Origin: Acidobacteriaceae bacterium
GTDB taxonomy: Bacteria > Acidobacteriota > Terriglobia > Terriglobales > Acidobacteriaceae
Direction of reading: 5' to 3'
DNA: 64,000 nt
NCBI GenBank assembly: GCA_035943695.1
Contig: DASZBW010000022.1
Span: 4,102-68,101 of the forward strand
The first letter of the stretch is position 1; every line of letters starts with the position of its first letter. Made by a program: the position numbers and the translations under genes. Below, in pieces: positions 12,022 through 48,212 of the stretch. Under the pieces are notes generated by a model. It worked only from the letters and a program-made list of their open reading frames with translations, did not search any database and was not told the DNA's origin.

Positions 12022-12131
12022 AAGGACTCTCAGGGCAAAGGTGATTTCGTATTGGTTGGATGCTCACGCCACGCACCAGGACTGACTAATTTTCCGGATG
12101 GCCGCAGGCCCTGCCAAACCCTCGTAAAAAA

Positions 12132-13520: not shown

Positions 13521-13695
13521 TCAAGTTGGACCAGCCGTTCGACGCCGGACGCCCGGGATCAGGTTGGCCGGTGTTCCAGTATGCAACACAGATTACCGCA
13601 AGCAGGAATCCATTAGATTGCACCTGCGATTGCCAAGCTTCAAAATCCACGTGTAAATGCGACTTTCGCTGAATGGAAAATCGGTCCTATGCAGA

Positions 13696-19129: not shown

Positions 19130-19206
19130 AGGCGCGTAGCTCAGTTGGTTAGAGCGCTACCTTGACACGGTAGAGGTCAGGAGTTCGAGTCTCCTCGTGC
19201 CTACCA
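19130..19206 (+). tRNA. tRNA-Val (anticodon GAC)
   Basis: Cloverleaf: acceptor AGGCGCG/CGTGCCT, anticodon arm CTACC-TTGACAC-GGTAG, TTCGAG T-loop, encoded CCA. Confidence 0.97.
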
Positions 19207-20704: not shown

Positions 20705-22600
20705 ATGTCTCTACTTCAATCGATGCCACCTACTGAACATCTGCAAACGCCCGGCTCTCCGCGCAATTCCGTCGATCCCCCCGGCGCGTCACTCCAAGGA
20801 TTCCGCAGCATTCTGCGCAGCAACGCCTGGCAGTATCTCGCCGTCCTCTTCTGCATCGCCTTCGGCATTACCATGATCCTCAACACCCAGATGGCCGGCG
20901 AGGGCGTCTGGTTCTGGTACACCAACGCCTTCCGCCACGGCGCCAAACTTTACAGCGACCTCCACCTCGCCATGCAACCCCTCTACATCCTCGAGTCCGA
21001 TGCATGGATACGCCTCTTCGGCATCAAGTGCTTCGTCTTCGAGATCCCCGCCGCCATCCACGTGGTCGCCTACGCCATCGCTATCTTCCTCGTTCTGCGC
21101 GAGTCCCGCTGGCCCGATTGGCAGAAGGCCGTCGTCCTTGCCAGCTCCTTCGCGCTCTGCCTCTTCGGCCACAACTATCGTCTCGACGATTACCACATCG
21201 TCGCCGAAGTCCTCATCTTCTACTCCTTCGCCACACTCCTCGTAATCGCCCGGACCCACTCACCCAGAAGGCAGACGCAGCTCGCAGCCCTCCTCGGCCT
21301 CCTCTCCGGCCTCACCATCACCAGCCGGGTCACCGACGGAGCCGCACTCCTGCTCGCCTCCTTCATCTGCCTCATGTTCCTCGTACAAACCCGCAGGCTC
21401 ATCCTCACCGCAGTCTTCGGCCTGGTCGCCGCACTCACCGTCCTCCTCATCGTCCACGCCACCGGCGACACCTTCGCCGCCTACATCTCCAGCACCCTCA
21501 TCAAAGCCGCCGGCAGCAAAGGAGGCACCGGCAGCATCTTCGCCGCTCCCCTGCTCCTCATCCGCAACGATATTGGCATTCTTCTCAGAGCCGGCAAGTG
21601 GCTCGTCGTCTTCATCCTCGCGCTCATAGCATTCGGCGCGCCCCTCCGCCTCCGATGGAAGCTCCGCGTCGGATTGATCGCTCTGCTTCAGCTGGCATTG
21701 GCCCTTGCCATCTCCGCCTTCATGTCGCACGCGTGGCGACTCCTCATCATCCACGGAGCCTTCATACCCGAGCTCGTGCTCTGCGCTGTCGCCATCACCT
21801 ACCTGCTGCCCTTCGTCGTAGTCGCCCGGCTCGCCCGCGCAACCCGCGCCCCCGCCAGCACCTCATGGGATCGCCGAGAAGTCTTGGTCATCCTCCCCCT
21901 CGCCATGTGGGCTTCTGCGTCCGCCGCATCCGCCGGCCAACCGCTCACGCAGTATTACGCCCCTGTAACCCTCCTGCTCCTCCTCTTCCCCATCCTCCAG
22001 CCCTTACCCCGCCAGGCAGCCTGGCTCAACGCATCCTTCCTGTCCGCAATGGCCCTCGTCGGACTCACCGCCCTCAGCTCAAAAGTCCTCAACCCGTACT
22101 CCTGGAACGACGCCGCCACCAGTCCCATGTTCACCCATCGCGTCTGGTATCGCCACCCGGTCTACGGCCCGCTCTACATCGATCGCGACGACCTCGCATT
22201 CAATCAATCCATCTGCGCCAGCGTCGGCCCCAGCACCGAGCTGCTCGGTCTGCCCTACCCCTACGCAAACTATTTCTGCGCCATCCCGCCCTGGCACGGA
22301 TACGTCCAGACCTACTTCGACACCACCCCTCGCGCCACCATCCAGCGCCTCATCGCCGAGCTTAATGCCGCTCCTCCCCAGTGGATCGTCTACCAACGCC
22401 AGCTCCACATCATGGCCGGCGCCGAAGGTCTCTACAACCACGGCCAGCCCCTCGCACAGCGAGACCTCGATACCGTCATCATGCAGAACATCGCCTCCCA
22501 CCGTTGGCAGCTCATCCAGAAACGAGACTACCCCGACATCCTCAACAAAGACGAATACCTCCCCGGCGACGGCTGGTACCTCATCCGCACACGTCCATAA
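20705..22600 (+). CDS. Polytopic membrane protein, possibly a GT-C-type glycosyltransferase
   Basis: About 12 hydrophobic segments, a KLYSDLHLAMQPL loop near the N-terminus and a soluble C-terminal domain. Family is inferred only. Confidence 0.55.
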   Translation: MSLLQSMPPTEHLQTPGSPRNSVDPPGASLQGFRSILRSNAWQYLAVLFCIAFGITMILNTQMAGEGVWFWYTNAFRHGAKLYSDLHLAMQPLYILESDAWIRLFGIKCFVFEIPAAIHVVAYAIAIFLVLRESRWPDWQKAVVLASSFALCLFGHNYRLDDYHIVAEVLIFYSFATLLVIARTHSPRRQTQLAALLGLLSGLTITSRVTDGAALLLASFICLMFLVQTRRLILTAVFGLVAALTVLLIVHATGDTFAAYISSTLIKAAGSKGGTGSIFAAPLLLIRNDIGILLRAGKWLVVFILALIAFGAPLRLRWKLRVGLIALLQLALALAISAFMSHAWRLLIIHGAFIPELVLCAVAITYLLPFVVVARLARATRAPASTSWDRREVLVILPLAMWASASAASAGQPLTQYYAPVTLLLLLFPILQPLPRQAAWLNASFLSAMALVGLTALSSKVLNPYSWNDAATSPMFTHRVWYRHPVYGPLYIDRDDLAFNQSICASVGPSTELLGLPYPYANYFCAIPPWHGYVQTYFDTTPRATIQRLIAELNAAPPQWIVYQRQLHIMAGAEGLYNHGQPLAQRDLDTVIMQNIASHRWQLIQKRDYPDILNKDEYLPGDGWYLIRTRP

Positions 22601-22742
22601 CAAACCATGGCAAAACACTACTTCTGTATCCGTATTCGCGAAAATTTATATTAGCGTGCGATCCAACTATCGCAAGAGCGCACAGCTAATCTAACCCAGA
22701 CGACGATTTTAATGTCGGCAACATAACAAGAATGAGGTTCCT

Positions 22743-23933
22743 TTGACCGCACTGCAATCCGCGCCCGTACACCAGGTCTCTGGAGAAAGCCGTCACTACC
22801 CAGAACTAGATGGAGTGCGCGGACTGGCAATTCTTGGGGTTCTTCTGGCACATGCTGCGAATTTTCTCGCGGTGGTGCCCGCGACTTCAGCGGGACATGT
22901 TCTGCTAACAATCTTCATGCCGGGTTGGGGAGGAGTTGACCTTTTCTTTACACTCTCTGGTTTTCTAATCACCGGAATACTACTGCGCACCCGAACTCGG
23001 TCGCATTATTTCTCATCCTTCTACATGAGGCGCGTTCTTCGCATCTTTCCTATCTATTATTTGTTCCTCATAGGAAGTGTTATATTTGCGCATTTTTCAC
23101 CGATGATGGCCCTGCGGATCCCTTCTAACCTGGAAACGCGCATCTCCTATTTTGTCTACCTGCAAAACTGGCCAATCTTCTGGCAGGGCTGGATGGGGCT
23201 CTCGACCTTTTGGGGTGCGTATTGGAGCCTTGCAGTCGAAGAGCAATTTTATATGGTTTGGCCGACCATCCTACGCTTCGTCAAACCCCGAATGGTGCTG
23301 CTCTTATGCATAGCAGCATTTCTATTGGGGTGGCCCGAGAGGCTCTATATGTTTCACCATGTCGGCCTAGCGTTGGGGGTCATGCAGTGGCCTTTTTCGC
23401 GACTGGATGGTCTGTTTGTCGGCGCAATCATAGCACTCTACAAAGAACTATACGGTCGTGCAATTCCCATTCGCTGGGCCACAATTAGTTTCCTGAGTGG
23501 AGCTGCCATATTCTTGCAAATCGCGGCAGCTCATTCGGTAGAGCTCGGAAATGGAAATGGCATCCACGTTTGGACATCTGGCGTGACTGCGTTTGCCTTG
23601 ATGTCAGGAGGCTTGATCGCTGCATCACAACATCGTATCGGCTGGTTACACCGCATTCTTACCGTTCGGCCCCTCGTTATCGCAGGTCGCTTAAGTTATG
23701 GGATGTACATTTACCATTTGACGATTTACCAGCTTATCGTATCGTTTCGGAGGCGCTTTATCATTCCTCAGGGGTTAGCCAATACAAATATTCTGGTGTG
23801 TTTGGCATGGATTGCATTTGCGATACTTGTTGTTACTGGCGTGGCCGAACTTAGCTTCCGCTTTGTTGAAGCTCCATTCCTGCGGCTCAAACGTTTCTTT
23901 CCATCGCCCGCCGCACCCGCCGTGCAAAACTAA
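22743..23933 (+). CDS. Acyltransferase family 3 (OafA-like)
   Basis: ELDGVRGLAI, GVDLFFTLSGFLIT, RRVLRIFP, WSLAVEEQFY and SYGMYIYH motifs. Confidence 0.92.
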   Translation: MTALQSAPVHQVSGESRHYPELDGVRGLAILGVLLAHAANFLAVVPATSAGHVLLTIFMPGWGGVDLFFTLSGFLITGILLRTRTRSHYFSSFYMRRVLRIFPIYYLFLIGSVIFAHFSPMMALRIPSNLETRISYFVYLQNWPIFWQGWMGLSTFWGAYWSLAVEEQFYMVWPTILRFVKPRMVLLLCIAAFLLGWPERLYMFHHVGLALGVMQWPFSRLDGLFVGAIIALYKELYGRAIPIRWATISFLSGAAIFLQIAAAHSVELGNGNGIHVWTSGVTAFALMSGGLIAASQHRIGWLHRILTVRPLVIAGRLSYGMYIYHLTIYQLIVSFRRRFIIPQGLANTNILVCLAWIAFAILVVTGVAELSFRFVEAPFLRLKRFFPSPAAPAVQN

Positions 23934-23975
23934 CTGCGGCCACCAGGCGGATGGACAAGCTGTCGTAACGGTCAG

Positions 23976-24023
23976 CTAAATCTTCTGCACCCGCTGCACG
24001 TCCCGCACACTCTGCACCCGCCG
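23976..24023 (-). repeat. Duplicate of the last 15 codons plus stop of rel
   Basis: 23980..24023 matches 25285..25328 at 42/44 nt; encodes RRVQSVRDVQRVQKI-stop. Confidence 0.85.
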
Positions 24024-24111
24024 AAGCGAAGTATGAGCAGCGGGAGATGAAAGACCGCCTCACATCCAACAGAAAAAATATCCTCTAAACGCCTGCCACG
24101 GATCCTTCACA

Positions 24112-25275
24112 ATGCATGAACACAAGACAGACCCTCAAAATTGGATCAAGCCCTACTATCGCTCATTCAATGGGCTTCGAGGACTGGCTGTAACCCTTGT
24201 TTTCTTTTGCCACTATGGCGGGTCTTTAGACAAGTTTACGTCCCAGGTGGGCTGGGTGGGTGTCGATCTGTTCTTCGTATTATCCGGTTTTTTAATCACC
24301 GGAATTCTTTTCGATTCGCTTGATAGTCCGCATTACTTTCGGGATTTCTACGTGCGGCGCGCATTGCGTATCTTCCCCATCTTCTATGGATTTTTTGGCG
24401 TTCTACTAATCGCCGCGCTCATTCTGCCTATTCACTTTCATCGGAGCATGCTCTCATTTGTCTTCTATGTCGGAAATCTCGTTACACCTTTGAGCAACCT
24501 GGACACGAATAACCCAACTTCAATCTGGATTTTCCGTCACGGCCGCCTATCAGAAATAGCCAATATCGGCACTCTATGGAGCCTTTGTGTAGAAGAGCAG
24601 TTCTACCTCATCTGGCCTGCAATAGTGTGGTGGGTCAGAGACCGCAGCCGCTTGATGAAGATCTGCATCCTTGTCTCCATCGCAACACTCGGCTGCCGCA
24701 TTTTATTAATGTGGTTACTCCCTGGAAAAGCGATATGGCATTACCAGCTCTATTGCAGCACCTATACGCGCTGCGATACGCTGCTTCTGGGCGCATGGCT
24801 CGCGCTGTACCTGCGTGGCGCCGTACTGTCGCTCGATCAACTTCGGCGGTATTCCAACACGCTTATGCTGTCTTCGCTTGCGGGCGTCATTGTGGGAAGA
24901 TCAATCTGGCGCTACGGAAATGCGTTGAACAATAGATTTATTCTTACTGGCGGCCTGACTCTGATTGCTCTCGCGGCAATGGGTTTAGTCCTGCGCGTCT
25001 TGGATGACACCAGCCGAATTTCACGCGTGTTGCGATGGCCCCCAATCGCTGGCCTCGGTGCAATAAGCTACGGCGTTTACTTTTTCCACTCCATCCCGTC
25101 GCCGATCTTGCACAGCTTTTCCGATACGCATCCAAGTCTAAGAAATATCATTCCTCCAGTTTGGTTTGCGTTGACCGTATCTATTGCATGGCTCAGCTTC
25201 CGCTTTTTTGAAACACCCTTCCTGCGATTAAAGAGGGTGCTTGCGCCACATAGGGCATCCATCATTGAGCGGTAG
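24112..25275 (+). CDS. Acyltransferase family 3 (OafA-like)
   Basis: FNGLRGLAV, GVDLFFVLSGFLIT, RRALRIFP, WSLCVEEQFY and SYGVYFFH motifs. Confidence 0.92.
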   Translation: MHEHKTDPQNWIKPYYRSFNGLRGLAVTLVFFCHYGGSLDKFTSQVGWVGVDLFFVLSGFLITGILFDSLDSPHYFRDFYVRRALRIFPIFYGFFGVLLIAALILPIHFHRSMLSFVFYVGNLVTPLSNLDTNNPTSIWIFRHGRLSEIANIGTLWSLCVEEQFYLIWPAIVWWVRDRSRLMKICILVSIATLGCRILLMWLLPGKAIWHYQLYCSTYTRCDTLLLGAWLALYLRGAVLSLDQLRRYSNTLMLSSLAGVIVGRSIWRYGNALNNRFILTGGLTLIALAAMGLVLRVLDDTSRISRVLRWPPIAGLGAISYGVYFFHSIPSPILHSFSDTHPSLRNIIPPVWFALTVSIAWLSFRFFETPFLRLKRVLAPHRASIIER

Positions 25276-25280
25276 TGCTA

Positions 25281-27797
25281 TCAGATCTTCTGCACCCGCT
25301 GCACATCCCGCACACTCTGCACTCGCCGCAGCTTATCCACCAGCCGGTTCAAGTGCCGCACATCCACCGTCTCCACCACAAAGTCGATCACCGCACCACC
25401 ATCCGCCGTAGCATTCGAAGCCGATGAGCGGATGTTCGTCCCATCATCCGAAATAATTGCCGTAAACTCCTTCAGCAACCCCGCGCGGTCGTCGCACAGA
25501 ATCGTAAGCTTCACCGGATAGGTCTGCGCCTTCGGCTTCCCTGCCGAACCCGCATCTCCGGGAATGGGTGCCCACTCAACCTGGATGCGCCGGTCAGACT
25601 CATACAACAAATTCTGCACATTAGGACAACTTCTTGCATGTACCGCGACGCCCTTACCCCGCGTCACATAACCGATAATCTCTTCCCCACGAATCGGATT
25701 ACAACAGCGCGCCCGATACACCAGCAGATCGTCCTGCCCCTCCACCTGCAGCGAGTCCGACCCCTTCCCGAAGAAGACCCGCTTCACCGCATCCGACATC
25801 TGATCCAGCGTATTGCCCACCACGCCCGGCTCACTCGCCGGCTCCGCAGCCGCCGTCGAACCCGGCTCCAGCCTATTCAGCACCTGCCGCGCCGAAAACT
25901 TCCCAAACCCAATCCCAGCCAGCAACTCCGCATGAGTCGTAACGCCATACTCCTGCGCCACCTTGTCGAAGTCCGCCTCGCTATGCTTCGAGAGCGCCAT
26001 CTTGAACTTCCGCGCCTCGCGGTCCAGCAGCTTCTGCCCAATCTCAATCGCGCGCTCACGCTGATGCTCATTGATCCAGTGCTTGATCTTGTTCCGCGCC
26101 CGCGAGCTCTTCGTAAAGCTAAGCCAGTCCCGGCTCGGCGCATGCCCCGTCTGCGTATTGATCTCAACAATGTCGCCATTCCGCAGCTTCGTCCGCAGCG
26201 GCACGATGCGCCCATTCACCTTCGCACCAATCGTAGTGTTGCCTACCTCCGTATGGATCGCATACGCAAAGTCGATCGGGCTCGCATCCTTCGGCAGCAC
26301 CACCACCTTGCCCTTCGGCGTAAAGGTGTAGACCTCATCCGGATACATGTCCATCTTCAGCGTGGACATAAACTCGTTCGGGTCCGACATCTCCCTCTGC
26401 CACTCCATCAGCTGCCGCACCCACGCCAGCCGAGCCTCATCCTTCGCGCTTACCGTATCACCAGCCTTATACTTCCAGTGCGCGGCGATCCCCTCCTCCG
26501 CCACGCGATGCATCTCCTCGGTCCGTATCTGCACCTCAAACTGGTGCCCACCCGGCGCAATCACAGTAGTGTGCAGCGACTGGTAAAGATTAGGCCGCGG
26601 CATCGCAATAAAGTCCTTGATACGCCCCGGCACCGGCCGCCAGATCGAGTGCAGCAGCCCCAGCACCGCATAGCAATCCTGCACACTCTGGCAGATAACC
26701 CGCAGCGCCAGCAGGTCATAAACCTGGTCCACCGGAATCTTCTGGTCGGAAAGCTTCTGTTGAATCGAATAAAGCCGCTTGATCCGCCACTCCACCCGCC
26801 CCGCCAGCTTGTGCTCTGCGAGCTTCGCCTCCAGGTCCTTCACTACACCGGCAAGAAACACCTCGCCCTCATGCCGCAGCGCATCCACCTCGTTCGAAAG
26901 CTGCTCATACACAAACGGATCGGTATACCGAAACGCCAGGTCCTCCAGCTCTCCACGCAGCTTACCCATGCCCAGCCGGTGCGCCAGCGGCGCAAAAATA
27001 TCCAGCGTCTCCTGCGCGATCTTCTGCTGCTTCTCCGGCTTCAGGTGTTCGAGCGTTCGCATATTGTGCAGCCGGTCCGCCAGCTTGATAATCACCACGC
27101 GAACGTCCGTCACCATCGCCAGCAGCATCTTGCGAATGTTCTCTGCCTGGTGGTCTTCGCGGTTCGCAAACTTGATCTTGTCCAGCTTCGTCACGCCCTC
27201 GACGATGTGCGCCACCTGCTCGCCGAACAGCTTTTCAATCTGCTCTGTCGTCACCTCGGTGTCTTCCACCGCATCATGCAGCAACCCCGCCGCAATCGCA
27301 GTCGAATCCATCTTCAGCTCCGCCAGCACCAGCCCCACCTCCAGCGGATGGATCGCATACGGCTCGCCCGAAGCGCGCTTCTGCCCTTCATGCTGTTCCA
27401 GGCAAAACGCCCATGCCTTGCGAATGATTTCGAGATCGTCGCCCGGCCGATTCTGATGCGCCTCATGCAGCAGCCGCGCAAACTTCGCGTCGATCTCGCT
27501 CACTTCAGCCGAGCTCACGCCAACCATATGTTCCGCCGAGCTATCTTCCACCGCAATCTCAACCGGCTCCGCTGCAACCTCAAGCGCAGTAACACCCTCC
27601 GCCGCCGGAATCTCTTCAGTCACCGCGGCAGAGCCCATCGGCACACCAGGACGCAGCGATTCAACCGGCTCAGCAGGCAGCGGAGCGAATTCCATCTCCT
27701 GCTCACTAGCCGTCGGATGCAGCTCGGAATCCATGCCCTCGACACGTGAGGGTGCAGCTTCGCCCCGTCTTCCGCGAGCCGCTGGAATGATTGCCAT
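25281..27797 (-). CDS. rel: Bifunctional (p)ppGpp synthetase/hydrolase Rel (start may be 27734)
   Basis: RASGEPYAIHP, LLHDAVED (HD), KLADRLHNMR, YQSLHT and EVQIRT motifs; TGS and ACT domains. Confidence 0.96.
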   Translation of the reverse strand: MAIIPAARGRRGEAAPSRVEGMDSELHPTASEQEMEFAPLPAEPVESLRPGVPMGSAAVTEEIPAAEGVTALEVAAEPVEIAVEDSSAEHMVGVSSAEVSEIDAKFARLLHEAHQNRPGDDLEIIRKAWAFCLEQHEGQKRASGEPYAIHPLEVGLVLAELKMDSTAIAAGLLHDAVEDTEVTTEQIEKLFGEQVAHIVEGVTKLDKIKFANREDHQAENIRKMLLAMVTDVRVVIIKLADRLHNMRTLEHLKPEKQQKIAQETLDIFAPLAHRLGMGKLRGELEDLAFRYTDPFVYEQLSNEVDALRHEGEVFLAGVVKDLEAKLAEHKLAGRVEWRIKRLYSIQQKLSDQKIPVDQVYDLLALRVICQSVQDCYAVLGLLHSIWRPVPGRIKDFIAMPRPNLYQSLHTTVIAPGGHQFEVQIRTEEMHRVAEEGIAAHWKYKAGDTVSAKDEARLAWVRQLMEWQREMSDPNEFMSTLKMDMYPDEVYTFTPKGKVVVLPKDASPIDFAYAIHTEVGNTTIGAKVNGRIVPLRTKLRNGDIVEINTQTGHAPSRDWLSFTKSSRARNKIKHWINEHQRERAIEIGQKLLDREARKFKMALSKHSEADFDKVAQEYGVTTHAELLAGIGFGKFSARQVLNRLEPGSTAAAEPASEPGVVGNTLDQMSDAVKRVFFGKGSDSLQVEGQDDLLVYRARCCNPIRGEEIIGYVTRGKGVAVHARSCPNVQNLLYESDRRIQVEWAPIPGDAGSAGKPKAQTYPVKLTILCDDRAGLLKEFTAIISDDGTNIRSSASNATADGGAVIDFVVETVDVRHLNRLVDKLRRVQSVRDVQRVQKI

Positions 27798-28008
27798 ATC
27801 TCATTATAGAAGGCACCTCTTAACGCTGTTAGCAAAACATCAAAAGCCTGCCATCCCACCCGCCCGAACCGGAATATCCCGAGAAATTCCGTCCGCGACC
27901 CCGCGAGCAATCGAAACATCTGCGCGACGAAAGTTTGCGCGCAGAATGGGCATTGATCGCTTCGCCACCCCAAGGCTCAAAACTAGCGCTACGTGTTTGA
28001 ATGTACGA

Positions 28009-29217
28009 ATGACCGAAGTGGAACGAGTTGAGGCACAACCCCCGGCGGCGCGATTTGAGAGCGTAGACCTTCTGCGTGGCCTTTCGATTCTCGCTGTGGT
28101 GCTGCTTCATTCCTGGCTACGCTTCTTTCTGAACGACGTACACGTGGGCACACGGTTGCCGAGATGGCTGGCGCAGCTCCTCCTGCGTAACGGCGGCAAT
28201 GGCGTCACTATATTCTTCGCCATCTCCGGCTTTCTGATCACGCTCACCAGCCTCCGGCGATTTGGGAGCCTGAGCCGGATGCAGCTTGGGCGTTTTTACA
28301 GAATCCGCTTTGCACGAATCGCTCCCCTGCTGCTGCTGCTGCTCACCGTCTTGTGCCTGCTGCACTGGGCCGCCCTCTATTCCCATGCCTTCGCGCCATG
28401 GCATGTGAAGAAGAACATTGGACTGCCGCGAGCATTGTTCTCCGCTCTAACGTTTCATCTCAACTGGCTCGAAGCGAAGGCCGGGTACCTCCCCGCGAAT
28501 TGGGACGTCCTGTGGTCCTTGAGCGTGGAGGAGATGTTTTATCTCTTCTTCCCGCTCGCCTGTGTGGCGTTTGTCGGACGCAGGTCGCCTCTACGAAAGG
28601 TTGGATGGCCGCTCCTGTTCCTCCTGGCAGGAGTCCTGCTTGTACTCGGACCCTGGGCACGATCGGTTTGGATCACCACCGATATCGGACGCGAGAAAAG
28701 CTATCTCGGCGGGATGAACGCAATAGCAATGGGATGCCTGGCGGCTCTGCTTTGCGATCGACTCGCGCATACGAGACAGCTCGCACGCCGATGGACTTTC
28801 GTCGCTGAGGCCGCCGGATGGGTGCTCATCGCGTGGATGGCCACCTGGCCGCGCTGGGCATGGCTGCATGGCGCAAGCCAGTTTCTAGGACGCACCGACC
28901 TCGATGACACACTGCTGCCACTCGCAGTCTGCCTTGTAATGGTTGCGACAGTACTGCGCGGTTCCAGCGGCGGAGGATGGCTCACCGCACCCCTTCGATG
29001 GTTCGGACGCCATAGCTACGAGGTGTACCTCACCCATGAATTTCTCGTCCTGCTCGGCGTAATAGCCTTCTTGCGCTGGCATGGAACCCATCCAGCGTTC
29101 TGGGTAGCCGGCATCACACTTTCAACGGCACCATTAGGATGGGCGGTGGCACACTACTTCTCGGAGCCGATGAATCGACGACTACGCGGACCAAGTCCCA
29201 CGAAGCCACGTTCCTGA
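28009..29217 (+). CDS. Acyltransferase family 3 (OafA-like)
   Basis: VDLLRGLSI, GVTIFFAISGFLIT, RFARIAP, WSLSVEEMFY and SYEVYLTH motifs. Start reset to the ATG at 28009. Confidence 0.9.
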   Translation: MTEVERVEAQPPAARFESVDLLRGLSILAVVLLHSWLRFFLNDVHVGTRLPRWLAQLLLRNGGNGVTIFFAISGFLITLTSLRRFGSLSRMQLGRFYRIRFARIAPLLLLLLTVLCLLHWAALYSHAFAPWHVKKNIGLPRALFSALTFHLNWLEAKAGYLPANWDVLWSLSVEEMFYLFFPLACVAFVGRRSPLRKVGWPLLFLLAGVLLVLGPWARSVWITTDIGREKSYLGGMNAIAMGCLAALLCDRLAHTRQLARRWTFVAEAAGWVLIAWMATWPRWAWLHGASQFLGRTDLDDTLLPLAVCLVMVATVLRGSSGGGWLTAPLRWFGRHSYEVYLTHEFLVLLGVIAFLRWHGTHPAFWVAGITLSTAPLGWAVAHYFSEPMNRRLRGPSPTKPRS

Positions 29218-29419
29218 TCGCCTGGATGCGCCCTGTTTGATCCGTATCAGCAAACATCGCTGTACATGCTTAGGTCCAGTGCCTGAACCCTTCGCCCCTC
29301 TACGTCACATTTACAACGCCCATAGATGCCACCGCTCAACGATGCGCGCGGACGTACTATAAATCCAGGGAGCAAACCCCTGCTCCTCCTCGCGTATCTC
29401 CCGAACGAAAGGCCCGCAC

Positions 29420-30624: not shown

Positions 30625-31605
30625 ATCCGAAGCATCCATTCCAGACGCTGTATAGCCACGGCACTCCTTGCGCTCACACCGGCACTCACCGGCTGTTCCG
30701 CCTTCCGAAGTGTCGCCAAATATCTGGCGGTCCATAAGCATGCCGTGCTCAAGACCCATCCTCCCGACGTAGTCCTCACCAGCTCCATGGACGAACTGCT
30801 CAAGCAGATCGACAACCGCTATACCGCCGTCGACACCATCACGAGTCGCCAAGTCGAAATGGACCTGTGCTGGGGCGGCGGGACGGACGGCATACAGAAC
30901 TGTTCCAACTTCAGCGGTTACATCGTCGTCCAGAAGCCCGAAAAGATTCTCGTCGTCCTCAAGCTCCCCGTCGTAGGCAGCGCAGCCCTCAATATGGCCT
31001 CAGACGGCAGGGCCTTCAAGATGAAGGTCCCACCCTATAACTGCGCCATCGTCGGCTCCGATGAAGTCACCAGCAGCTCCCAGAAGGGCATCTACGCGCT
31101 TCGCCCCAGCGCAATCCTCGACTCCATGCTGATTCGCGGCATCCGGGCCAACCAGGTCGTCTCCATGACCCAGGACAGCCGCACCCTGCCCGACCCCAAA
31201 AACCGCAAGAGCCTCATGCTCGAACCAGACTACGACATCGAATTCCTCTCCCAGCCTGCCGGTCAGATCGCCAGCACCCTCCGCGTGCTCCACACCAGCC
31301 GAGTCAACCTGCTGCCCTACCGACAGGACATCTACAACCCGGAAGGCAAAATCGTCACGACAGCCTTCTACAGCAACTACCAGAAGTTCGGCGACATCAA
31401 CTTCCCCACAAAGATCGAAATTCAACGCCCGCTCGACGAACTCAAACTCACCATCACCCTCAGCAAGACCGTCTTCAACCAGACCCTGCCGGCGGACCAG
31501 TTCGACATCGATATCCCCGCCACCTACAAAACCTACAAAATGGACGACCCATCCATCGCCGCTACAGTCCCGTGCGGCGCGCATGCGACGCAATCGCCGC
31601 ATTGA
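30625..31605 (+). CDS. LolA/LolB-like (DUF4292-type) lipoprotein; start uncertain (ATC 30625 or GTG 30745)
   Basis: The open frame includes a signal peptide and lipobox LTGC upstream of the GTG. Beta-rich body ending FNQTLPADQFDI. Confidence 0.6.
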   Translation: MRSIHSRRCIATALLALTPALTGCSAFRSVAKYLAVHKHAVLKTHPPDVVLTSSMDELLKQIDNRYTAVDTITSRQVEMDLCWGGGTDGIQNCSNFSGYIVVQKPEKILVVLKLPVVGSAALNMASDGRAFKMKVPPYNCAIVGSDEVTSSSQKGIYALRPSAILDSMLIRGIRANQVVSMTQDSRTLPDPKNRKSLMLEPDYDIEFLSQPAGQIASTLRVLHTSRVNLLPYRQDIYNPEGKIVTTAFYSNYQKFGDINFPTKIEIQRPLDELKLTITLSKTVFNQTLPADQFDIDIPATYKTYKMDDPSIAATVPCGAHATQSPH

Positions 31606-32851
31606 TCTCCAGCGCCAACCCCAGCGCCGCCCGCCCATCCTCCACCGTCACCTCTGGCTCCCGCCGCGTCCGCACCGCCTCCAGAAAAGCCTCAATCTCC
31701 AGCCGCAGCGGCTCCCCCGCCTCCACCGCAACCTTCCGCATCTCCATCCCCCCCGAAGGATGTTCACCAACCCTCTGACCATCCGCTGTCGAACTCTTCC
31801 CCACCCCCAAAACTCCGGGTGCCCCATCCTTCGCAGCCTCATCGCGAAGGGTGGAGTCCAACATCTTCGCCGCGATCTTCCCCAAATCCGCTCCCGTCAC
31901 ATCGATCACCAACAAATCCTGCCGCGCAAAGTCCAGCGAAAGATACTGCCGCGGCTGAAAGAACCGCATCTTCCGTACCCGCTCCGTACTCACCCGGCTC
32001 GCAGTAAAGTTCGCCACACAGCCGTTCTCAAACTCCAGCCGCACATTCGCGATATCCACCTTATTCGACAACACCGGAAGCCCTACCGCCCGAACCTCCC
32101 GCACCGGCACACCTACCAGGTTCATCACAATATCCAGGTCATGGATCATCAAATCCAGCACCACATCGACATCCAGCGACCGCGGCGTAAACACGCTCAT
32201 CCGGTGCACCTCAAAGAACATCGGCTTGTTCAGCAGCCCACGCACCGCCCGCACCGCCGGGTTGAACCGCTCCAGATGCCCCACCTGCACCACGCGCCCT
32301 AGCTTCTGCGACAGCGCCACAATCTCATCCGCCTCAGCCAGCGTAGCCGCCAACGGCTTCTCGATCAGCACATCCACACCCGCCGCCATCAACTCCCGCG
32401 CACAAGCCAGATGATGCACCGTAGACACACAAACCGAAGCCGCCGAAATCCCCCTGAGGCCTCCTCTCTGTTTGTCATTCTGAGCGGAGCGAAGAACCCC
32501 CGCATCTCCTCCCACAGAGCCACCAACCCCGGGTGCCCCATCCTTAGCAGCCTCATCGCTAAGGGTGGGATCCACAAAGCCCGCATCACCTACTCCGGGT
32601 GCCCCATTCATGCGCGCATTTTGCGCATGAGTGGGATCGACAAATCCCGCACCCCCACCCTCCCCCATTAGACACTCAGCAACCGAAGCATACCCACGCA
32701 CCCCAAAGTCCGCCTCAGCCCGCCCTCGAGCCCCAGCATCGGGATCAATCACCGCCGCCAGCTCCACCGGATATCCCGCCACCTCCAGCTCGCGATAAAC
32801 CCGCAGATGGTTCCGCCCGAACGCCCCCGCGCCCACCACCACCACCCGCAT
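31562..32851 (-). CDS. Gfo/Idh/MocA oxidoreductase (possibly GnnA-like UDP-GlcNAc 3-dehydrogenase) with repeat-derived inserts
   Basis: MRVVVVGAGAFG, LIEKP, GHLERFNPA and DLMIHDLD motifs. Start reset to the ATG at 32851. Confidence 0.88.
   Translation of the reverse strand: MRVVVVGAGAFGRNHLRVYRELEVAGYPVELAAVIDPDAGARGRAEADFGVRGYASVAECLMGEGGGAGFVDPTHAQNARMNGAPGVGDAGFVDPTLSDEAAKDGAPGVGGSVGGDAGVLRSAQNDKQRGGLRGISAASVCVSTVHHLACARELMAAGVDVLIEKPLAATLAEADEIVALSQKLGRVVQVGHLERFNPAVRAVRGLLNKPMFFEVHRMSVFTPRSLDVDVVLDLMIHDLDIVMNLVGVPVREVRAVGLPVLSNKVDIANVRLEFENGCVANFTASRVSTERVRKMRFFQPRQYLSLDFARQDLLVIDVTGADLGKIAAKMLDSTLRDEAAKDGAPGVLGVGKSSTADGQRVGEHPSGGMEMRKVAVEAGEPLRLEIEAFLEAVRTRREPEVTVEDGRAALGLALEINAAIASHARRTGL
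31817..31855 (+). repeat. Palindromic element family A, inside the Gfo gene
   Basis: GGGTGCCCCAT-CCTTCGC-N9-GCGAAGG-GTGG. Confidence 0.9.
32473..32662 (+). repeat. Composite insert in the Gfo gene: one family B copy (32473-32505) and two family A copies (32531, 32597; 66-bp period)
   Basis: TGTCATTCTGAGCGGAGCGAAGAACCCCCGCAT is identical to 44339-44371; two GGGTGCCCCAT...GTGGGAT hairpins follow. Confidence 0.9.
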
Positions 32852-32883
32852 TACGGACTGTTCGCCATCCCGCAGTCCGCACT

Positions 32884-32933
32884 CCCCGGCGAGCGGTCCC
32901 GGCTCGCCGGGGTGAAGCGAAGCGGTGGAACCT
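32884..32933 (+). repeat. 11-bp-stem hairpin with a family-B-like tail (family D)
   Basis: CCCCGGCGAGC-N7-GCTCGCCGGGG followed by TGAAGCGAAGCGGTGGAACCT. Confidence 0.6.
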
Positions 32934-33000
32934 CTTTCTCCACCGCCCCCCACAGCTTCCTGTTCCTTGTACCTTACTCCCTGCTCCCTGCCCTCCGGCA

Positions 33001-33213
33001 CTACTTCACCGAACCCTCAACCGCCGACCTGCAACGCCCATACAGCTCCAGCAGCTCCGTAACCTGATCCTCTGCCTTCGCCGAAGCCGCCGCCCCAAAA
33101 CCCACGCCGCCGCTAGCCGCCTTCGCGCCCACATGCGCCTGCGCCGCCACAAACTTTAGCAGATCCAAAGCAATATCCTCAGTCCGCCGAGCTCCATTGT
33201 TCACTTCACTCAT
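33001..33213 (-). CDS. Small hypothetical protein
   Basis: 70 aa, helical ends with a Gly/Ala linker; ATG start; same strand as the downstream Gfo gene. Confidence 0.6.
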   Translation of the reverse strand: MSEVNNGARRTEDIALDLLKFVAAQAHVGAKAASGGVGFGAAASAKAEDQVTELLELYGRCRSAVEGSVK

Positions 33214-36557: not shown

Positions 36558-36801
36558 GCTTCTAAGTGGTCAAAGCTTCAGAGCTTCCACGTAAGCCAGG
36601 GCTTCAGCCGTGACCTCCGCAGTAGCCCCCTTCAACGCAACATCTAAGCTCTCGCTTCTAGGTAAGCCAAGGCTTCAGCCGTGACCTGTACAGTAGCCCC
36701 TCCAACGCAACATCCAAGCTCTCGCTTCTAGGTAAGCCAAGGCTTCAGCCTTGGCCCTCTCCAGCCTACATACAACGGGGGCTTTAGCCCCTGGGGCATG
36801 C
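36558..36801 (+). repeat. About 70-bp tandem array ending in a complete family C element (36728-36801)
   Basis: Units start GTAAGCCA at 36591, 36662 and 36732, each followed by GGCTTCAGCC; the last continues to GGGGCTTTAGCCCCTGGGG. Confidence 0.85.
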
Positions 36802-36845
36802 TCTCTTCGCTGCGCCACATCAATCCAAATTCCCACACCACCAGC

Positions 36846-38228: not shown

Positions 38229-38334
38229 ACCCGATTATCCCCCTCGTCCACCCTGAGCAAAAAGAGCCGCCTTAGTGGGAAATCTCACCATTTCGCAGAA
38301 GTAGATCGCGAAGGTCCTGTGGGGTTCCCAGCCC

Positions 38335-38455
38335 GGTGCCCCATTCATGACAACATCATCGTCATGAGTGGGGTCCGCCGCGTCCGGGTGATAGCCGTCC
38401 GACAGCCGGATACCTGGGTGCCCCATTCATGACAGCACTATCGTCATGAGTGGGG
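38335..38455 (+). repeat. Two family A hairpins upstream of dnaB (38335-38373, 38416-38455)
   Basis: GGTGCCCCAT-TCATGAC-N9-GTCATGA-GTGGGG twice. Confidence 0.9.
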
Positions 38456-38569
38456 GTCTCCGTCGCCACGGTCATAACCTTCCGCCAGCTGATTACTCTG
38501 CACCACCCCCATTCAATGGCATAATGACTCAAACCCCAGGCGCACCAGCCCAACGGAGTCCACCCAACC

Positions 38570-43939: not shown

Positions 43940-43959
43940 CTCCTCACCCCGATCACACC

Positions 43960-43999
43960 GGTGCCCCATTCATGACAGTCTCACCGTCATGAATGGGGC
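43960..43999 (+). repeat. Family A hairpin between the convergent DUF72 and mnmG genes
   Basis: GCCCCATTCATGAC-N9-GTCATGAATGGGGC (14-bp perfect stem). Confidence 0.9.
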
Positions 44000-44021
44000 C
44001 TACCTCCGCAGCCAGCCCCCG

Positions 44022-46535
44022 TTACGCGGTCTTCCGCCGCCCCTGAATCTCAATAAAACAATTCACCAGGCTCACCGCCGCCGGCGTCACTCCCTGAATC
44101 CGCCCAGCCTGCCCCAGCGTTCTCGGCCGCACCCGCCCCAGCGTCTCCACCATCTCCCTGCTCAACCCCGAACAAGCCGCATAATCGAACCCAACCGGAA
44201 TCACCCTTTCCTCATCCCGCTTCAGCTTCGCCATCGTCTTCTTCTGCTGCTCCAGATACCCCGCATACTTGATCTCCGTCTCCACCGTCTTCATCTCATT
44301 CCGAACCCACGCCGGAAGTCTCCCACTGGCGACGGACGTGTCATTCTGAGCGGAGCGAAGAACCCCCGCATTTTCTCCGGCCACCCAAACACCCCCTCCG
44401 CTCATCCAAACTCCCAATTCCTCCACCCCACCCACCACCTCATGCAAGACCGGCCACAACCCCTCCACCATAACCTCCGGCCTCTTCAAAACCTGCGCCC
44501 AGGTCTGCCCCTTCATCTCCGAAACATCCCCGCGCAAAGCCCCCCCCAACATCTCCACCAAAGCCTCAGCCCGCTCCCCCACCCGCATCTCCAACACCCG
44601 CGCAAACGCCTCCGCCCGAGCCATCTTCGCCTCATGCGCCGCCCACGCAACATCATCAATCAGCCCCAGCCGCCGCCCATACACCGTCAGCCGACGATCC
44701 GCATTATCAATCCTCAAATGCAGCCGAAACTCCGCCCGCGAAGTAAACATCCGGTAAGGCTCATTCGTCCCCTTCGAGATCAAATCATCAATCAAAATCC
44801 CCGTATACCCCTCCGTCCGATCCAGCGTAAACCCTGCAAACTCCCCCCACCCCAAAACTCCGGGTGCCCCATCCATCGCAGCCTCACCGCGATGGGTGGG
44901 ATGTAAGACCTCCGCTTCCCCCACCAAAGCCTTTGCCCATAAGGCAGCATTAATTCCCGCCATCAACCCCTGGCAAGCCGCCTCTTCATACCCACTCGTC
45001 CCATTGATCTGCCCCGCCAGAAACAGCCCGGCAAACTTCTTCACTCCCAGCGTCCTATCCAGCTCCGTCGGGTCAATAGCGTCATACTCGATCGCATACC
45101 CCGGCCGCAACATCTCTGCATTCTCCAGCCCAGGTATCGACCGCACCATCGCCACCTGCACCTCCATCGGCAGGCTGGTCGACATGCCATTCACATAAAC
45201 CTCATGCGTATTCAGCCCCTCCGGCTCCAGAAAAAACTGGTGCTGCGTCTTCTCCGGAAACCGCACGATCTTGTCCTCAATCGAAGGACAATACCGCGGC
45301 CCCGTCGCATGAATCTGCCCCGTATACATCGGCGACCGGTGCGCATTCTCCCGGATCAGCCGCATCGTCTCCGGCGACGTCGTAGCAATATAGCAACTCA
45401 CCTGCCGCAACTCCGGCACCCAGCTCCCACCCCCGCATCCCGCCGTAGAAGAGAGAACGGGCCAGGCCGAGCGTAGCGGAGAAGGTATCGCCTCTAGGTA
45501 CCCCAAGGCTTCAGCCTTGGGTCTCTCTGCCACGGCCGAAGAACAAGAGGCTTTAGCCTCTGGGGTATGCCCTCCGTCCGCCGCGCCGACAGCCTCATTC
45601 TGAGCGAAGCCGCGTGCCCCATCCATCGCAGTCTCATCGCGATGGGTGGGATGCAAATCTCCCCGTGCCCAATTCCTGCCAGTCCTATCGTCATGAGTGG
45701 GCGCCAACCCCGTTCCCCGCTTCAACCCCGCCCGAAAACTAAACGGAGTAGGATCCACATCCCCAGGCTGCTCCTCAAACCTCGTCCAATCAATCGTCCG
45801 CCCATCCAGCCGCGGCGGAGTCCCTGTCTTCAACCTGCACTCCCGCAGCCCCAGCCGCTTCAGCGCCTCCCCCAGCAACACGCTCGCCGGCTCCCCACTC
45901 CGCCCCGCCGCGTACTGCTGCTCCCCACAATGAATCAACCCATTCAAAAACGTCCCCGTAGTCACCACCGTAGCCCGCGCATAAACTACCCGCCCATCCC
46001 GCAGCCGCACGCCCACCACCCGCCGCTGCCTGTGCTCCTGGGCAAAGCTCCCACCCACAACATTGTCATCCTCAGCAGCGCCAGTAAAAACATTGTCATC
46101 CTGAGCGGAGCGCAGCGCAGTCGAAGGACCTGCGGTTCCTTCCTCCACCACCACATCCACCACCTCAGCTTGCTTAATAAACAAGCCCTTCTGCCCCTCC
46201 AGCACCTCCCGCATCTTCACCCGGTAAAGCGCCTTATCGCACTGCGCCCTCGGCGACCAAACAGCCGGCCCCCGCGAAGTATTCAGCAGCCGAAACTGGA
46301 TCCCACAAGCATCCGCCACTTCACCCATCACTCCACCCAGCGCATCCACCTCCCGCACCAGGTGTCCCTTAGCGATCCCGCCAATCGCCGGATTACAACT
46401 CATCTGCGCAATCAAATCCAGATTCAGCGTAAACAACGCCGTCCGCAGCCCCATCCGCGCCGCCGCCATAGCCGCCTCGCACCCCGCATGACCCGCCCCC
46501 ACCACCACCACATCAAACTCTTCCGTAAATCCCAT
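44022..46535 (-). CDS. mnmG: tRNA uridine-34 carboxymethylaminomethyl modification enzyme MnmG (GidA) with four repeat-derived in-frame inserts
   Basis: [58 protein letters not shown] and [12 protein letters not shown] all intact; 837 aa. Confidence 0.96.
44339..44371 (+). repeat. Family B element inside mnmG
   Basis: 33/33 identical to 32473-32505; read as [10 protein letters not shown] in both genes. Confidence 0.9.
44862..44902 (+). repeat. Family A element inside mnmG
   Basis: GGGTGCCCCAT-CCATCGC-N9-GCGATGG-GTGGGAT. Confidence 0.9.
45420..45715 (+). repeat. Composite insert in mnmG: family C (45494-45570), B fragment (45596-45610), family A (45614-45652) and degenerate A (45665-45701)
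   Basis: Direct similarity to the intergenic copies at 36728, 46635 and 38416. Boundaries approximate. Confidence 0.85.
46059..46137 (+). repeat. Family B element with an abortive upstream copy, inside mnmG
   Basis: AACATTGTCATCCTCAGC, then AACATTGTCATCCTGAGCGGAGCGCAGCGCAGTCGAAGGACCTGCGGTT; the tail is shared with 48163-48212. Confidence 0.85.
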
Positions 46536-46570
46536 CCCCCAATTCTACGTTTTTCCACCCATCACCCCCA

Positions 46571-46744
46571 CTATCATCCTGCCATTCTGCCCCCGTACTA
46601 TCACCGTGCCATTCTGAGCCGCCTAGTATCACCGTGTCATTCTGAGCGAAGCGAAGAACCCCCGCATTTCGCCTTTGCTCTGCTTTACCTTTGCCTCAGC
46701 CTTTGCCCGTTCCTGCTGTCATCCTGAACGCAGCGAAGTATCCC
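46571..46744 (+). repeat. Intergenic family B copies (46635-46667, 46717-46744) preceded by two degenerate junction copies
   Basis: CTATCATCCTGCCATTCTG / CTATCACCGTGCCATTCTGAGC / GTATCACCGTGTCATTCTGAGCGAAGCGAAGAACCCCCGCAT. Confidence 0.8.
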
Positions 46745-47235
46745 GATACGTCCGCCCAACCTCAACCTCCCGAACCTTTCTCCCACAGCCCACCGTCCCC
46801 CGACGACCTGTCAGCCTCAACTAAAAGCTGTCAGCGGATCGATAAACCTGCCGCCCTCCCGCCGAAAACCTGTCAACCCCCACCCACCCACATCGTGGAT
46901 ACAACCCATTCAAATACAGTAACTTAAGCCAAACCACCGCATGGCGAGCAGTTACGGTCAATCTCGTATAATAGAACTAGATGAAAAAAGCGAGGCGCCA
47001 TCAGCCTAAACGGCGCTTCAAAAACAGTGGTTCAATGACAACACTGGTGTGGCTATCTGTATACACCGATCACTAAATATTTACATTGCAGTAACTTAGA
47101 GATATATAGGGGGGGGAGGGGGAGTATGGTAAACAAGCCACAACAGAACATCCAGCCAGCCTTACCCAGCCGCCGACCCCTCGCGCCGTCCAGGAAGAAC
47201 CCGGCCTCCAGGATCACATCCTCCGCAGGCCTCCC

Positions 47236-48060
47236 ATGACGAACTACTTCAACTATTTCACCGAGATTGAAGACCGCTTCCAGCAGCGCCGAGGCTCCCT
47301 CCTCATGCTCTCCACCCTCGACTGGGCCCTCATCGAGACCTGGCGCGAAGCCCAGGTCCCCCTTGAAGCCGTCCTCCGAGGCATCGACACTGCCTTCGAT
47401 AAACACGACGCCCAGCTCGCCCGCGCCGGAGCCCGTCGCCCCCGCAAAGTCAACGGCCTCGCCTGGTGCGCCCAGGCCGTCCTCGAAGCCGTCGAGCAAT
47501 CCCGCGAAGCCGCCATCGGCACCGCACCCACCACCACCGAATCCCGCGACTCCGGCTTCGAAGCCGCCCGCATCGCCGCCTACCTCAACCGCAACGCCAC
47601 CCAACTCGAGGCTGCCGCAAACCACGCACCAGCAGCAGCTCAGACCGCCGCCCGCCTTCGCACCCTAGCAACGCAACTCCAAGCCGCCCCCGAACCCGAC
47701 TCGTCCTCCCCCGCGCCCCTGTTATCATCCCGCAGCGAAGCGGAGGGATCTGCTTCTCCATCCGCAACCACTCGCGAGCCCCTCGGCCTCGAAGATGGAG
47801 CCATCAGCCTGGAGATGTTAGACCGCACCCTCACCGTCCTCGAAGAAAAGCTCTACACCTCCCTCCTAGCCTCCGCCCCCGAAGATCAGCTGGTAGCCCT
47901 CCGCGCCCAGGCCGACCGCGAACTCGCCCCCTACCGCGGCAAGATGCAAGCCGTCCAGATCAAGCAGGTCCAGCAACAGCTCCTGCAAAAGCGCCTCCTC
48001 GAAGCCCACAAACTCCCCCGCCTCAGCCTCTTCTACATGCCTCACGAAGAGGAGGCCTGA
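47236..48060 (+). CDS. Hypothetical protein with a possible DnaD/DnaB_2-like N-terminal domain
   Basis: Strong codon bias. F..RRG...LS.LD..LIE.W....P.E.VLRGI..AF pattern; domain call is inference. Confidence 0.65.
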   Translation: MTNYFNYFTEIEDRFQQRRGSLLMLSTLDWALIETWREAQVPLEAVLRGIDTAFDKHDAQLARAGARRPRKVNGLAWCAQAVLEAVEQSREAAIGTAPTTTESRDSGFEAARIAAYLNRNATQLEAAANHAPAAAQTAARLRTLATQLQAAPEPDSSSPAPLLSSRSEAEGSASPSATTREPLGLEDGAISLEMLDRTLTVLEEKLYTSLLASAPEDQLVALRAQADRELAPYRGKMQAVQIKQVQQQLLQKRLLEAHKLPRLSLFYMPHEEEA

Positions 48061-48091: not shown

Positions 48092-48212
48092 AAGTTGATA
48101 GATATTCAAGATTATGAAGTTGATAGATATTGGAGGTTACGAAGCAGATAGAGATTGAAGATTGTCATCCTGAGCGAAGGCGCAAAGCGCCGTAGTCGAA
48201 GGACCTGCGGTT
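48092..48212 (+). repeat. 25-bp x3 AT-rich tandem array abutting a family B element
   Basis: AAGTTGATAGATATT at 48092 and 48117, degenerate third unit at 48142, then TGTCATCCTGAGCGAAGG...AGTCGAAGGACCTGCGGTT. Confidence 0.8.

Follow-up and report, generated by a model that had tools for sequence, protein, structure and literature searches.

The mnmG (gidA) gene on a 64,000-nucleotide (nt) stretch of an Acidobacteriaceae genome (assembly GCA_035943695.1, contig DASZBW010000022.1, positions 4,102 to 68,101; this whole stretch is called the window here) encodes a protein of 837 amino acids (aa), whereas MnmG of Escherichia coli has 629, and the question arises where the additional residues come from and how a universally conserved enzyme can carry them. 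Our analysis of the locus and of its counterparts in related genomes indicates that the extra segments are probably short, non-autonomous, hairpin-forming repeats that landed in mnmG, where they are in-frame, tolerated in loops and translated, the enzyme remaining functional. A preliminary description of the window, made from its letters alone, had pointed in this direction, and its claims are taken up below together with the results that bear on them.

The open reading frame (ORF) at 44022-46535 on the minus strand encodes a complete and intact MnmG/GidA. Pfam analysis recognized the GIDA domain (E 2.4e-156) and both C-terminal MnmG domains (GIDA_C_1st and SAM_GIDA_C), the ORF matched structures of E. 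coli MnmG with an E-value of 8e-170, and all 45 positions that are invariant among 100 diverse MnmG sequences were retained (45/45), including C47 and C416, which confirms the earlier statement that the catalytic motifs are kept in the 837-aa protein. The alignment with E. coli MnmG consisted of five blocks, split by four segments present only in the query, namely aa 133-170, 270-375, 534-567 and 694-747 (sites S1 to S4), which map to E. coli positions 152|153, 251-257, 414-420 and 543-559, respectively. Together these segments comprise about 207 residues and account for the whole excess over the E. coli enzyme. The inserts themselves measure about 38 aa in S1, about 101 aa in S2, about 29 aa in S3 and 20-39 aa in S4, the gain at the last site being only about 20 aa when measured against the Acidobacteriaceae baseline. 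The four ranges proposed beforehand lie near those obtained from the alignment, and the peptides quoted for the inserts were correct.

Self-comparison of the window identified three repeat families, A, B and C. Family B has a 13-bp stem with a 9-nt loop followed by CACCCGG on the gene-sense strand; the opposite strand begins with CCGGGTGCCCCA. This head, CCGGGTG and then CCCCA, is present in all copies and is followed by a variable, covarying stem. Nine B copies lie between 31.8 and 45.7 kb of the window (three in mnmG, three in an ORF of the Gfo/Idh/MocA family and three between genes), and 23 were found in the loci of relatives. Among the nine, 5 of the 13 stem pairs changed on both sides, a covariation score reached by none of 500 shuffles (0/500), and a covariance model recovered 8 of the 9 copies (62-75 bits; E-values of 1e-16 to 1e-20), all but the decayed one at 45661, which was not among the matches listed. 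Folding energies of -10 to -19 kcal/mol were about equal on both strands, so the active strand cannot be inferred from folding; an early idea on the active strand, based on a position with G.T versus C.A, was dropped as another stem position was biased oppositely. Owing to a fixed C.A mismatch, the B hairpins escaped an inverted-repeat search at seed 8.

Family A is a sharply bounded 27-nt unit, GTCATYCTGAGCGNAGCGAAGRATC, the fold of which reads ATYCT-GA-[GCGNAGC]-GA-AGRAT, that is, a 5-bp stem, two G.A pairs and a GCGNAGC tip that forms on one strand only. In 150 A copies from other contigs, conservation stops at the edges of the unit, the Y/R pair covaries (T-A 76, C-G 65, T-G 2 and C-A 1 copies; Fisher 2e-37) and the N of the tip is free (C 58, A 50, G 28 and T 13 copies). 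DNA folding of A with ViennaRNA gave no significant hairpin, and its structure is seen from the unit boundaries and the covariation in these 150 copies. The preliminary description of the inserts as palindromic hairpins thus holds for B and C, whereas A forms a hairpin only by way of G.A pairs and a GNA triloop. Family C is a double hairpin of about 90 nt, with three tandem copies at 36583-36805 and one copy in S2. An Rfam scan of the 30-50 kb region matched none of the three families and gave no hit at E<=1. GCGNAGC has been noted as a mini-hairpin of extreme stability as DNA (PMC13037366). The A core was also observed in more than 120 viral or proviral contigs of IMG/VR with a GC content of 32-71%, with sharp edges and sometimes as two facing copies 20-50 nt apart, which makes its distribution far wider than the Acidobacteriaceae.

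All four inserts of mnmG contain units of these families, all on the minus strand. S1 (46026-46139; aa 133-170), in the turn of a beta-hairpin, consists of a long variant of A (46089-46137), which recurs between genes at 48158-48212, and of a partial duplicate of its core (46059-46081). S2 (45411-45728; aa 270-375) holds stacked repeats, namely a decayed B (45661-45707), an intact B (45604-45661), an A remnant (45591-45612) and a C double hairpin (45482-45574) that matches 36716-36805, in addition to about 70 nt assigned to none of the families; the observation that one insert stacks three families is therefore correct. S3 (44835-44936; aa 534-567) carries a single long-form B at 44841-44924, and S4 (44331-44402; approximately aa 712-735, a range taken against the family baseline) a single A unit at 44337-44378. 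The A sequence of S4 (44337-44373) is identical at 36/37 positions to the intergenic copy at 46633-46669 and at 38/40 positions to a copy in another gene (32473-32512).

Comparison with orthologues showed that the same loops are filled in related genomes. The nearest loci belong to metagenome-assembled genomes (MAGs) with about 70-73% identity, followed by Granulicella, Bryocella and Edaphobacter. In 99 diverse MnmG the four loops have median lengths of 10, 17, 16 and 25 aa, as compared to 48, 119, 45 and 65 aa in the window protein, and maxima of 42, 36, 21 and 68 aa, the longest again being those of close relatives of the query; nearly all of these alignments show the same five-block split. 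Among 64 Acidobacteriaceae orthologues the baseline is 10, 17, 16 and 41-48 aa, and the maxima reach 104, 116, 74 and 85 aa. The empty sites that such an alignment had been proposed to define occur in many of these orthologues, and 88 expanded loops contain many repeat families, in both orientations and two frames, with nested and tandem copies. B-derived peptides appear in two frames (one of them PPxxMxPSWMGHP) and in reverse (GAPSFAASSERVG), A-derived peptides in reverse (LRSAQND) and forward (CHPERSGAESKDL), and further hairpins with the CCGGGTGCCCCA head and other stems encode HISESRYGAP and GAPRLDSETW. Cultured members with insert-bearing MnmG include Bryocella elongata DSM 22489 (833 aa), Tunturiibacter psychrotolerans X4BP1 and Granulicella sp. 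L60. The four MnmG loops are insertion hot spots across the Acidobacteriaceae, and the system is family-wide. The claim that a multi-family system colonises conserved genes here stands insofar as several unrelated families lie in-frame as well as between genes and in other genes, but this is not peculiar to the present genome.

Some relatives showed further arrangements in mnmG. Long palindromes built on a GGGATTA heptamer occupy the loops of loci L005 (3001-5502), L034, L014 and L011, with peptides such as GIREQGLE...LIPNPYSLIP; in L008 (3770-3866 and 4852-4951) B hairpins contain about 40 nt inside their loop, one element being nested in another; and orthologues P0007 and P0010 have a fifth insertion site a few residues before the MnmG C-terminus (EPTSQIRDVGHPR and PTSHHRDAAHP), which the window gene lacks.

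The content of the sites turns over between close relatives. S3 carries B in 20 of the 40 closest relatives, with a core identity of 79-86%, and the other sites vary by genome. Relative to the closest relative, P0002 (its DNA being in L081), the first B of S2 is orthologous, intact there and broken by three substitutions in the window; the window gained a second B in S2, bordering on an A unit of which P0002 has the intact form, and also gained C and further sequence behind it. This comparison of S2 shows stepwise accretion. In S3, where the window and P0002 have orthologous B copies, the two arms have changed in step (ATCGCG/CGCGAT against ATGACG/CGTCAT), and a second B is present in P0002. 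Moreover, the difference between two near-identical orthologue proteins was found to be one tandem B unit.

The effect of the inserts on the fold was assessed with AlphaFold. A first run, on an alignment of 40 close relatives, reached a predicted local distance difference test (pLDDT) score of 48 and was unusable; with 100 diverse representatives instead, the pLDDT was 81.6 and the predicted template modelling score 0.84, core blocks being at 94-99. Values below 50 were obtained only at aa 137-166, 274-372, 550-561 and 714-719, i.e., in the four inserts, and comparison of the model with solved MnmG structures yielded target-normalised template modelling scores of 0.87-0.93. In the model, S1 lies in the turn between strands 125-131 and 171-178, S2 between helix 269-274 and strand 381-385, S3 past the long helix 516-537 and S4 between helices of the C-terminal domain. 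The mapping proposed in the preliminary description thus returned a native-like core in which the inserts alone fall below 50. Its suggestion that they are tolerated in surface loops is supported by these low-confidence model segments, by the short loops of the 99 diverse MnmG and by the hot spots in the 64 relatives.

The reading frame points in the same direction. In the 88 expanded loops of the aligned orthologues (3534 codons) no in-frame stop was found, as compared to about 100 expected and to 83 and 118 in the other frames, a count that is partly built in since only intact ORFs were aligned; put fairly, no more than 3 of 80 loci are broken. The broken loci (L002, L018 and L021) are all from long-read MAGs and have their frame changes beside homopolymer-rich B copies; these breaks probably reflect errors in homopolymers, namely the GGGG/CCCC runs that the repeats contain, the alternative being real pseudogenes. 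The decayed B copy of S2, which has lost its folding, is still retained in-frame.

A point that emerged from this analysis is the strict strand polarity of A and B relative to GC skew. In the window, all A and B copies have one orientation, despite genes on both strands and intergenic sites. In the loci of relatives, where only positions with an absolute skew of at least 0.1 were counted, the orientation of A and B tracks the local GC skew and not the orientation of mnmG: the GTCAT... strand of A was on the C-rich strand in 34/35 copies (11/12 loci, p=0.006) and the head of B in 21/21 copies (10/10 loci, p=0.002). The independent IMG/VR set, with a GC content of 32-71%, agrees with this, the A core being on the C-rich strand in 62 of 71 contigs (p=7e-11). 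Polarity is stated here relative to GC skew, that is, to the C-rich strand, and not as leading or lagging strand. As the orientation of A and B is fixed, the peptide that they contribute depends on the strand of the host gene. With respect to the skew itself, the first 12 kb of the window had values close to zero or slightly positive, a switch followed near 12000-14000, and in the mnmG loci of relatives the skew ranged from -0.34 to +0.34 over 8 kb.

We propose that the repeats would spread as non-autonomous elements and that selection would screen their intragenic copies by frame and position. Within genes, copies would persist only if they are in-frame, stop-free and placed in loops where added residues spare the fold, and MnmG would offer four such permissive loops. 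Once occupied, a loop would become a landing pad, in which new copies may insert beside or inside older ones, duplicate in tandem, decay and be replaced. The inserts would be transcribed and translated as flexible surface loops rich in Gly, Ala, Pro and Asp, and the enzyme would stay functional. The strict strand polarity suggests either mobilisation as single-stranded DNA (ssDNA) coupled to replication or purging of one orientation. In the first case, the repeats might insert as single strands at the replication fork by an HUH/Y1-type, REP-like process (REP, repetitive extragenic palindromic sequence); IS200/IS605 elements insert via single-stranded DNA at the fork, and the same has been proposed for REPs with their Y1 enzymes (REP-associated tyrosine transposases, RAYTs). 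In the second case, one orientation may be lost in a replication-dependent manner: hairpin-mediated slippage is expected to delete a hairpin confined to one strand, such as the GCGNAGC tip of A, at a higher rate where this strand serves as lagging-strand template, which would leave one orientation.

Several observations weigh against the view that the inserts are mobile repeats that are merely tolerated. Low pLDDT values stand for the absence of a confident AlphaFold structure of the inserts and are no proof of exposure or harmlessness, and the selection of intact ORFs mentioned above takes part of the force from the stop count. GC skew on the plus strand of the window is unusually strong and lopsided: from about 16 kb to the end, over 48 kb, each 2-kb interval has a value of -0.15 to -0.45, irrespective of the strand on which the genes lie. 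Neither a transposase nor a RAYT gene was found among the about 50 window ORFs scanned with Pfam, no transposase was found beside repeat copies in the loci of relatives, and a REPtron-like layout, with opposed repeat heads around an ORF, was not found in 81 loci of relatives. Furthermore, in five orthologues sharing the S3 hairpin, third-codon identity at identical residues was 92% in the element as compared to 73% elsewhere, which, in this small sample, may reflect function at the nucleotide level, hairpin constraint or gene conversion and not pure neutrality.

This last observation, together with the presence of the S3 hairpin in half of the closest relatives, would also be expected if the intragenic hairpins had been co-opted and were selected rather than tolerated, be it for a DNA or RNA role (pausing, mRNA stability, regulation, or polarity of replication or segregation) or for a loop role in MnmG. 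The maintenance of the hairpin by paired changes that alter two amino acids fits such a role, as does the strict strand polarity, which is a trait of functional polar motifs. However, the content of the sites differs between close relatives throughout, one copy in the window has decayed and many orthologues have empty sites; a specific role at the protein level is further countered by the fact that one loop hosts various families, orientations and frames. Hence, we consider co-option unlikely.

The preliminary description had left a choice between tolerance in surface loops and removal at the RNA or protein level. If the inserts were lost before or at maturation, be it as inteins, through translational bypassing or in an intron-like manner, a mature MnmG of about 630 aa would result, and stable hairpins could in principle serve as processing signals. 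The inserts of 65 aligned orthologues, however, are all multiples of three and free of stops, a property that excision from the mRNA would make needless, and copies that have lost their hairpin through decay are still in-frame. Protein splicing, by contrast, does depend on an open frame; no intein or Hint domain, however, was found in MnmG by Pfam, the Rfam scan of 30-50 kb gave no group I or II intron or other RNA family at E<=1, and the inserts, at 20-106 aa, are below the size of mini-inteins. Since the open frame is retained, a Hint domain is lacking and the inserts are too short for inteins, we infer that they are translated. Tolerated, translated loop insertions are the best reading of these sequences, and removal is very improbable.

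Two further explanations carry next to no weight. Mis-threading of repeats into mnmG during assembly of the metagenome is extremely improbable: the unitigs of the source run do break within the repeat cores, which have a 10- to 150-fold higher depth, so that short reads alone do not bridge each insert, but on either side of the sites they pass from unique gene sequence into repeat sequence without a mismatch, and no unitig forms an empty-site joint. The reading frame is intact across all four inserts, and the four sites are occupied by these families in independent assemblies as well, among them isolate genomes and long-read MAGs; the raw-read check named in the preliminary description thus reproduced the junctions between gene and repeat. 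Ordinary lineage-specific loop expansion or low-complexity drift, with a coincidental likeness to intergenic repeats, can be set aside with equal confidence. Loop lengths do show some variation in other bacteria, the diverse set reaching 42, 36, 21 and 68 aa, but the DNA of the inserts is 95-97% identical to that of copies between genes and in other genes over 37-40 nt, the covariance model scores copies at E-values of 1e-16 to 1e-20, sub-families have compensatory stem changes in common, and element boundaries are equal inside and outside genes.

Copies outside mnmG accompany those within it. The intergenic elements at 43960, 46635, 36728 and 38416, to which the inserts had been likened beforehand, are all true copies. 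The first is a B hairpin on the minus strand (43951-44008), 14 nt past the mnmG stop in the spacer to a convergent DUF72 gene, and is the most stable B copy (-16 to -19 kcal/mol). The second belongs to a cluster upstream of mnmG on the plus strand (46564-46751), composed of three tandem 27-28-nt units derived from the 5' part of A (46564-46646), a full A (46633-46669) and a diverged A (46715-46751). The third is part of the three tandem C units at 36583-36805 on the plus strand, in the spacer between dnaB and a gene for an NAD-binding protein, and the fourth is one of two direct B hairpins (38326-38383 and 38408-38465) on the minus strand in the spacer upstream of dnaB (38326-38465). The intergenic long-variant A at 48158-48212 on the plus strand contains an internal GGCGC-AAA-GCGCC hairpin. 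A promoter and terminator scan of the mnmG region gave nothing above chance: the sole sigma-70-like match of the region (-35 ATGACA, -10 CAGAAT) is built from the units at 46564-46646, immediately upstream of the mnmG start, and occurs at chance frequency, and the C hairpin at 45546-45561 in mnmG, with its T-rich tail, scores terminator-like on the sense strand, at chance level for the scan.

A search for in-frame copies in other genes, likewise suggested in the preliminary description, was also successful. The ORF of a Gfo/Idh/MocA oxidoreductase at 31562-33001 on the minus strand, identified by Pfam and repeat matches, carries two in-frame inserts on the same strand: site 1 (32453-32659; 69 aa) comprises A (32473-32512) and two B copies (32523-32580 and 32589-32646), which split the Rossmann domain recognized by Pfam, and site 2 (31796-31870) is a long B; the C-terminal domain is about 22 aa over-long. 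A candidate insert, a diverged A at 47722-47766 on the plus strand, lies in-frame in the gene at 47236-48060, which belongs to no Pfam family. It keeps the DNA orientation of the other A copies, and as its host gene is on the plus strand, the peptide is a different one, LLSSRSEAEGSASP. In-frame B copies also occur in two genes of relatives, namely a 636-aa ORF and that of an alpha/beta hydrolase.

In-frame insertion of palindromic repeats has been described before. Rickettsia palindromic elements (RPEs) are in-frame insertions in many genes (Ogata et al., 2000; PMC10969869), and the analogy drawn in the preliminary description is apt, the kind of repeat insertion being the same: several palindromic families lie in-frame in unrelated housekeeping genes and in non-coding DNA, at positions compatible with the fold. 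The last feature is seen here at the level of the model, which places the inserts between well-predicted strands and helices. By contrast, the present units measure 27-95 nt as compared to about 100-150 nt, are stacked, nested and in tandem at hot spots and are polar with respect to GC skew, and their hosts are free-living soil Acidobacteriaceae and not obligate intracellular Rickettsiales. Host, unit length and consensus set them apart from RPE-1 to RPE-10, a distinction made by description and not by alignment; nothing pointed to a common ancestry with RPEs, and a sequence relationship is not expected.

REPs are the second system for comparison. GTAG/CGTC REPs occur within genes as singles, dimers and clusters encoding 20-82 aa in Opitutus terrae, Thauera and R. 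conorii (Di Nocera et al., 2013; PMC3733652), and REPs are also found in-frame within RAYT genes (PMC6006769). B resembles them in being an imperfect palindrome, short and present in many copies, in which a conserved head adjoins a variable, compensating stem. However, its head is CCGGGTG-CCCCA and not GT[AG]G/CGTC, only the copy at 43957 having GTAG, on the other strand; the B pairs at 32523/32589, 38326/38408 and 45604/45661 are direct and not inverted doublets as in REPINs (REP doublets forming hairpins) or bacterial interspersed mosaic elements; and 6 of the 9 B copies in the window are intragenic. In Acidobacteria, class 3 HuH-Y1 genes have been associated with atypical high-copy hairpins, about 600 of them in Solibacter usitatus (Quentin et al., 2018; PMC6006769). 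These hairpins, from the phylum studied here, are presumed to be handled by an ssDNA endonuclease. Their 5' foot, CnGA, is found in only some B copies; in 5/9 B copies the foot is CGGA, TGGA (twice), TCGA or GAGA, and the others differ. No class 3 HuH-Y1 gene was found in the window or in the loci of relatives, and by analogy such an enzyme may be the most plausible kind of mobiliser of the B superfamily, a candidate lead and not a result.

The d(GCGNAGC) mini-hairpin is known as a motif of physical chemistry and from a few origins and promoters. The tip of A is exactly GCG-N-AGC, as in the mini-hairpin of Hirao and co-workers, and adjoins tandem G.A pairs and a 5-bp stem that covaries; in the literature searched, no description of this motif as the core of a dispersed repeat was found. 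As to miniature inverted-repeat transposable elements, A cores face each other across 20-50 nt in some viral contigs and are single in the window, and a target-site duplication was not definable from comparisons of filled and empty sites. A limited literature search found no description of the A, B or C elements or of intragenic repeats in Acidobacteria. The kind of element is thus already known from RPEs and intragenic REPs, and the present system is a polarised multi-family variant that belongs to neither; besides the polarity, its new aspect is the A unit, a widely dispersed repeat built on the GCGNAGC mini-hairpin.

Other features of the window may be mentioned briefly. The region 22000-29300 has a lower GC content (0.54) and may be acquired DNA; it includes adjacent paralogous Acyl_transf_3 genes (22743-23933 and 24112-25275), which have segments of 139, 48 and 35 nt in common, and a third such gene at 27733-29217. 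A pair of genes at 10984-13520, coding for an EgtD-like histidine methyltransferase and an EgtB-like protein (DinB_2 and FGE-sulfatase), is likely an ergothioneine locus, and a tRNA gene is located at 19130-19203.

In-frame repeat insertion has so far mostly been treated as a curiosity of Rickettsia and of a few REP-rich species. Here it is seen on a larger scale and in an abundant free-living soil lineage, where repeats account for up to a quarter of an enzyme that is universally conserved, where many families have hit the four loops repeatedly and where loop content differs between genomes with a core identity of still 80-85%. In practical terms, protein lengths are inflated by such repeats, short-read assemblies break at them, long-read MAGs are prone to homopolymer errors there, and annotations of Acidobacteria gain many spurious 'hypothetical' ORFs. 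The locus also offers a natural system for studying how enzymes tolerate unstructured sequence, how new loops originate and how short hairpin repeats are mobilised, and the fixed orientation relative to GC skew makes mobilisation testable, as replication-coupled ssDNA insertion versus orientation-dependent loss. Tentatively, and with considerable doubt, we put forward the wider idea that the superfamily headed by CCGGGTGCCCCA and the 27-nt GCGNAGC unit might constitute a general and ongoing engine of loop expansion in the Acidobacteriaceae, in which ssDNA placement would be strand-polar and existing copies would be preferred as targets. If this were true, the loops of many conserved enzymes in this family would be fast-evolving landing pads rather than a few frozen accidents.

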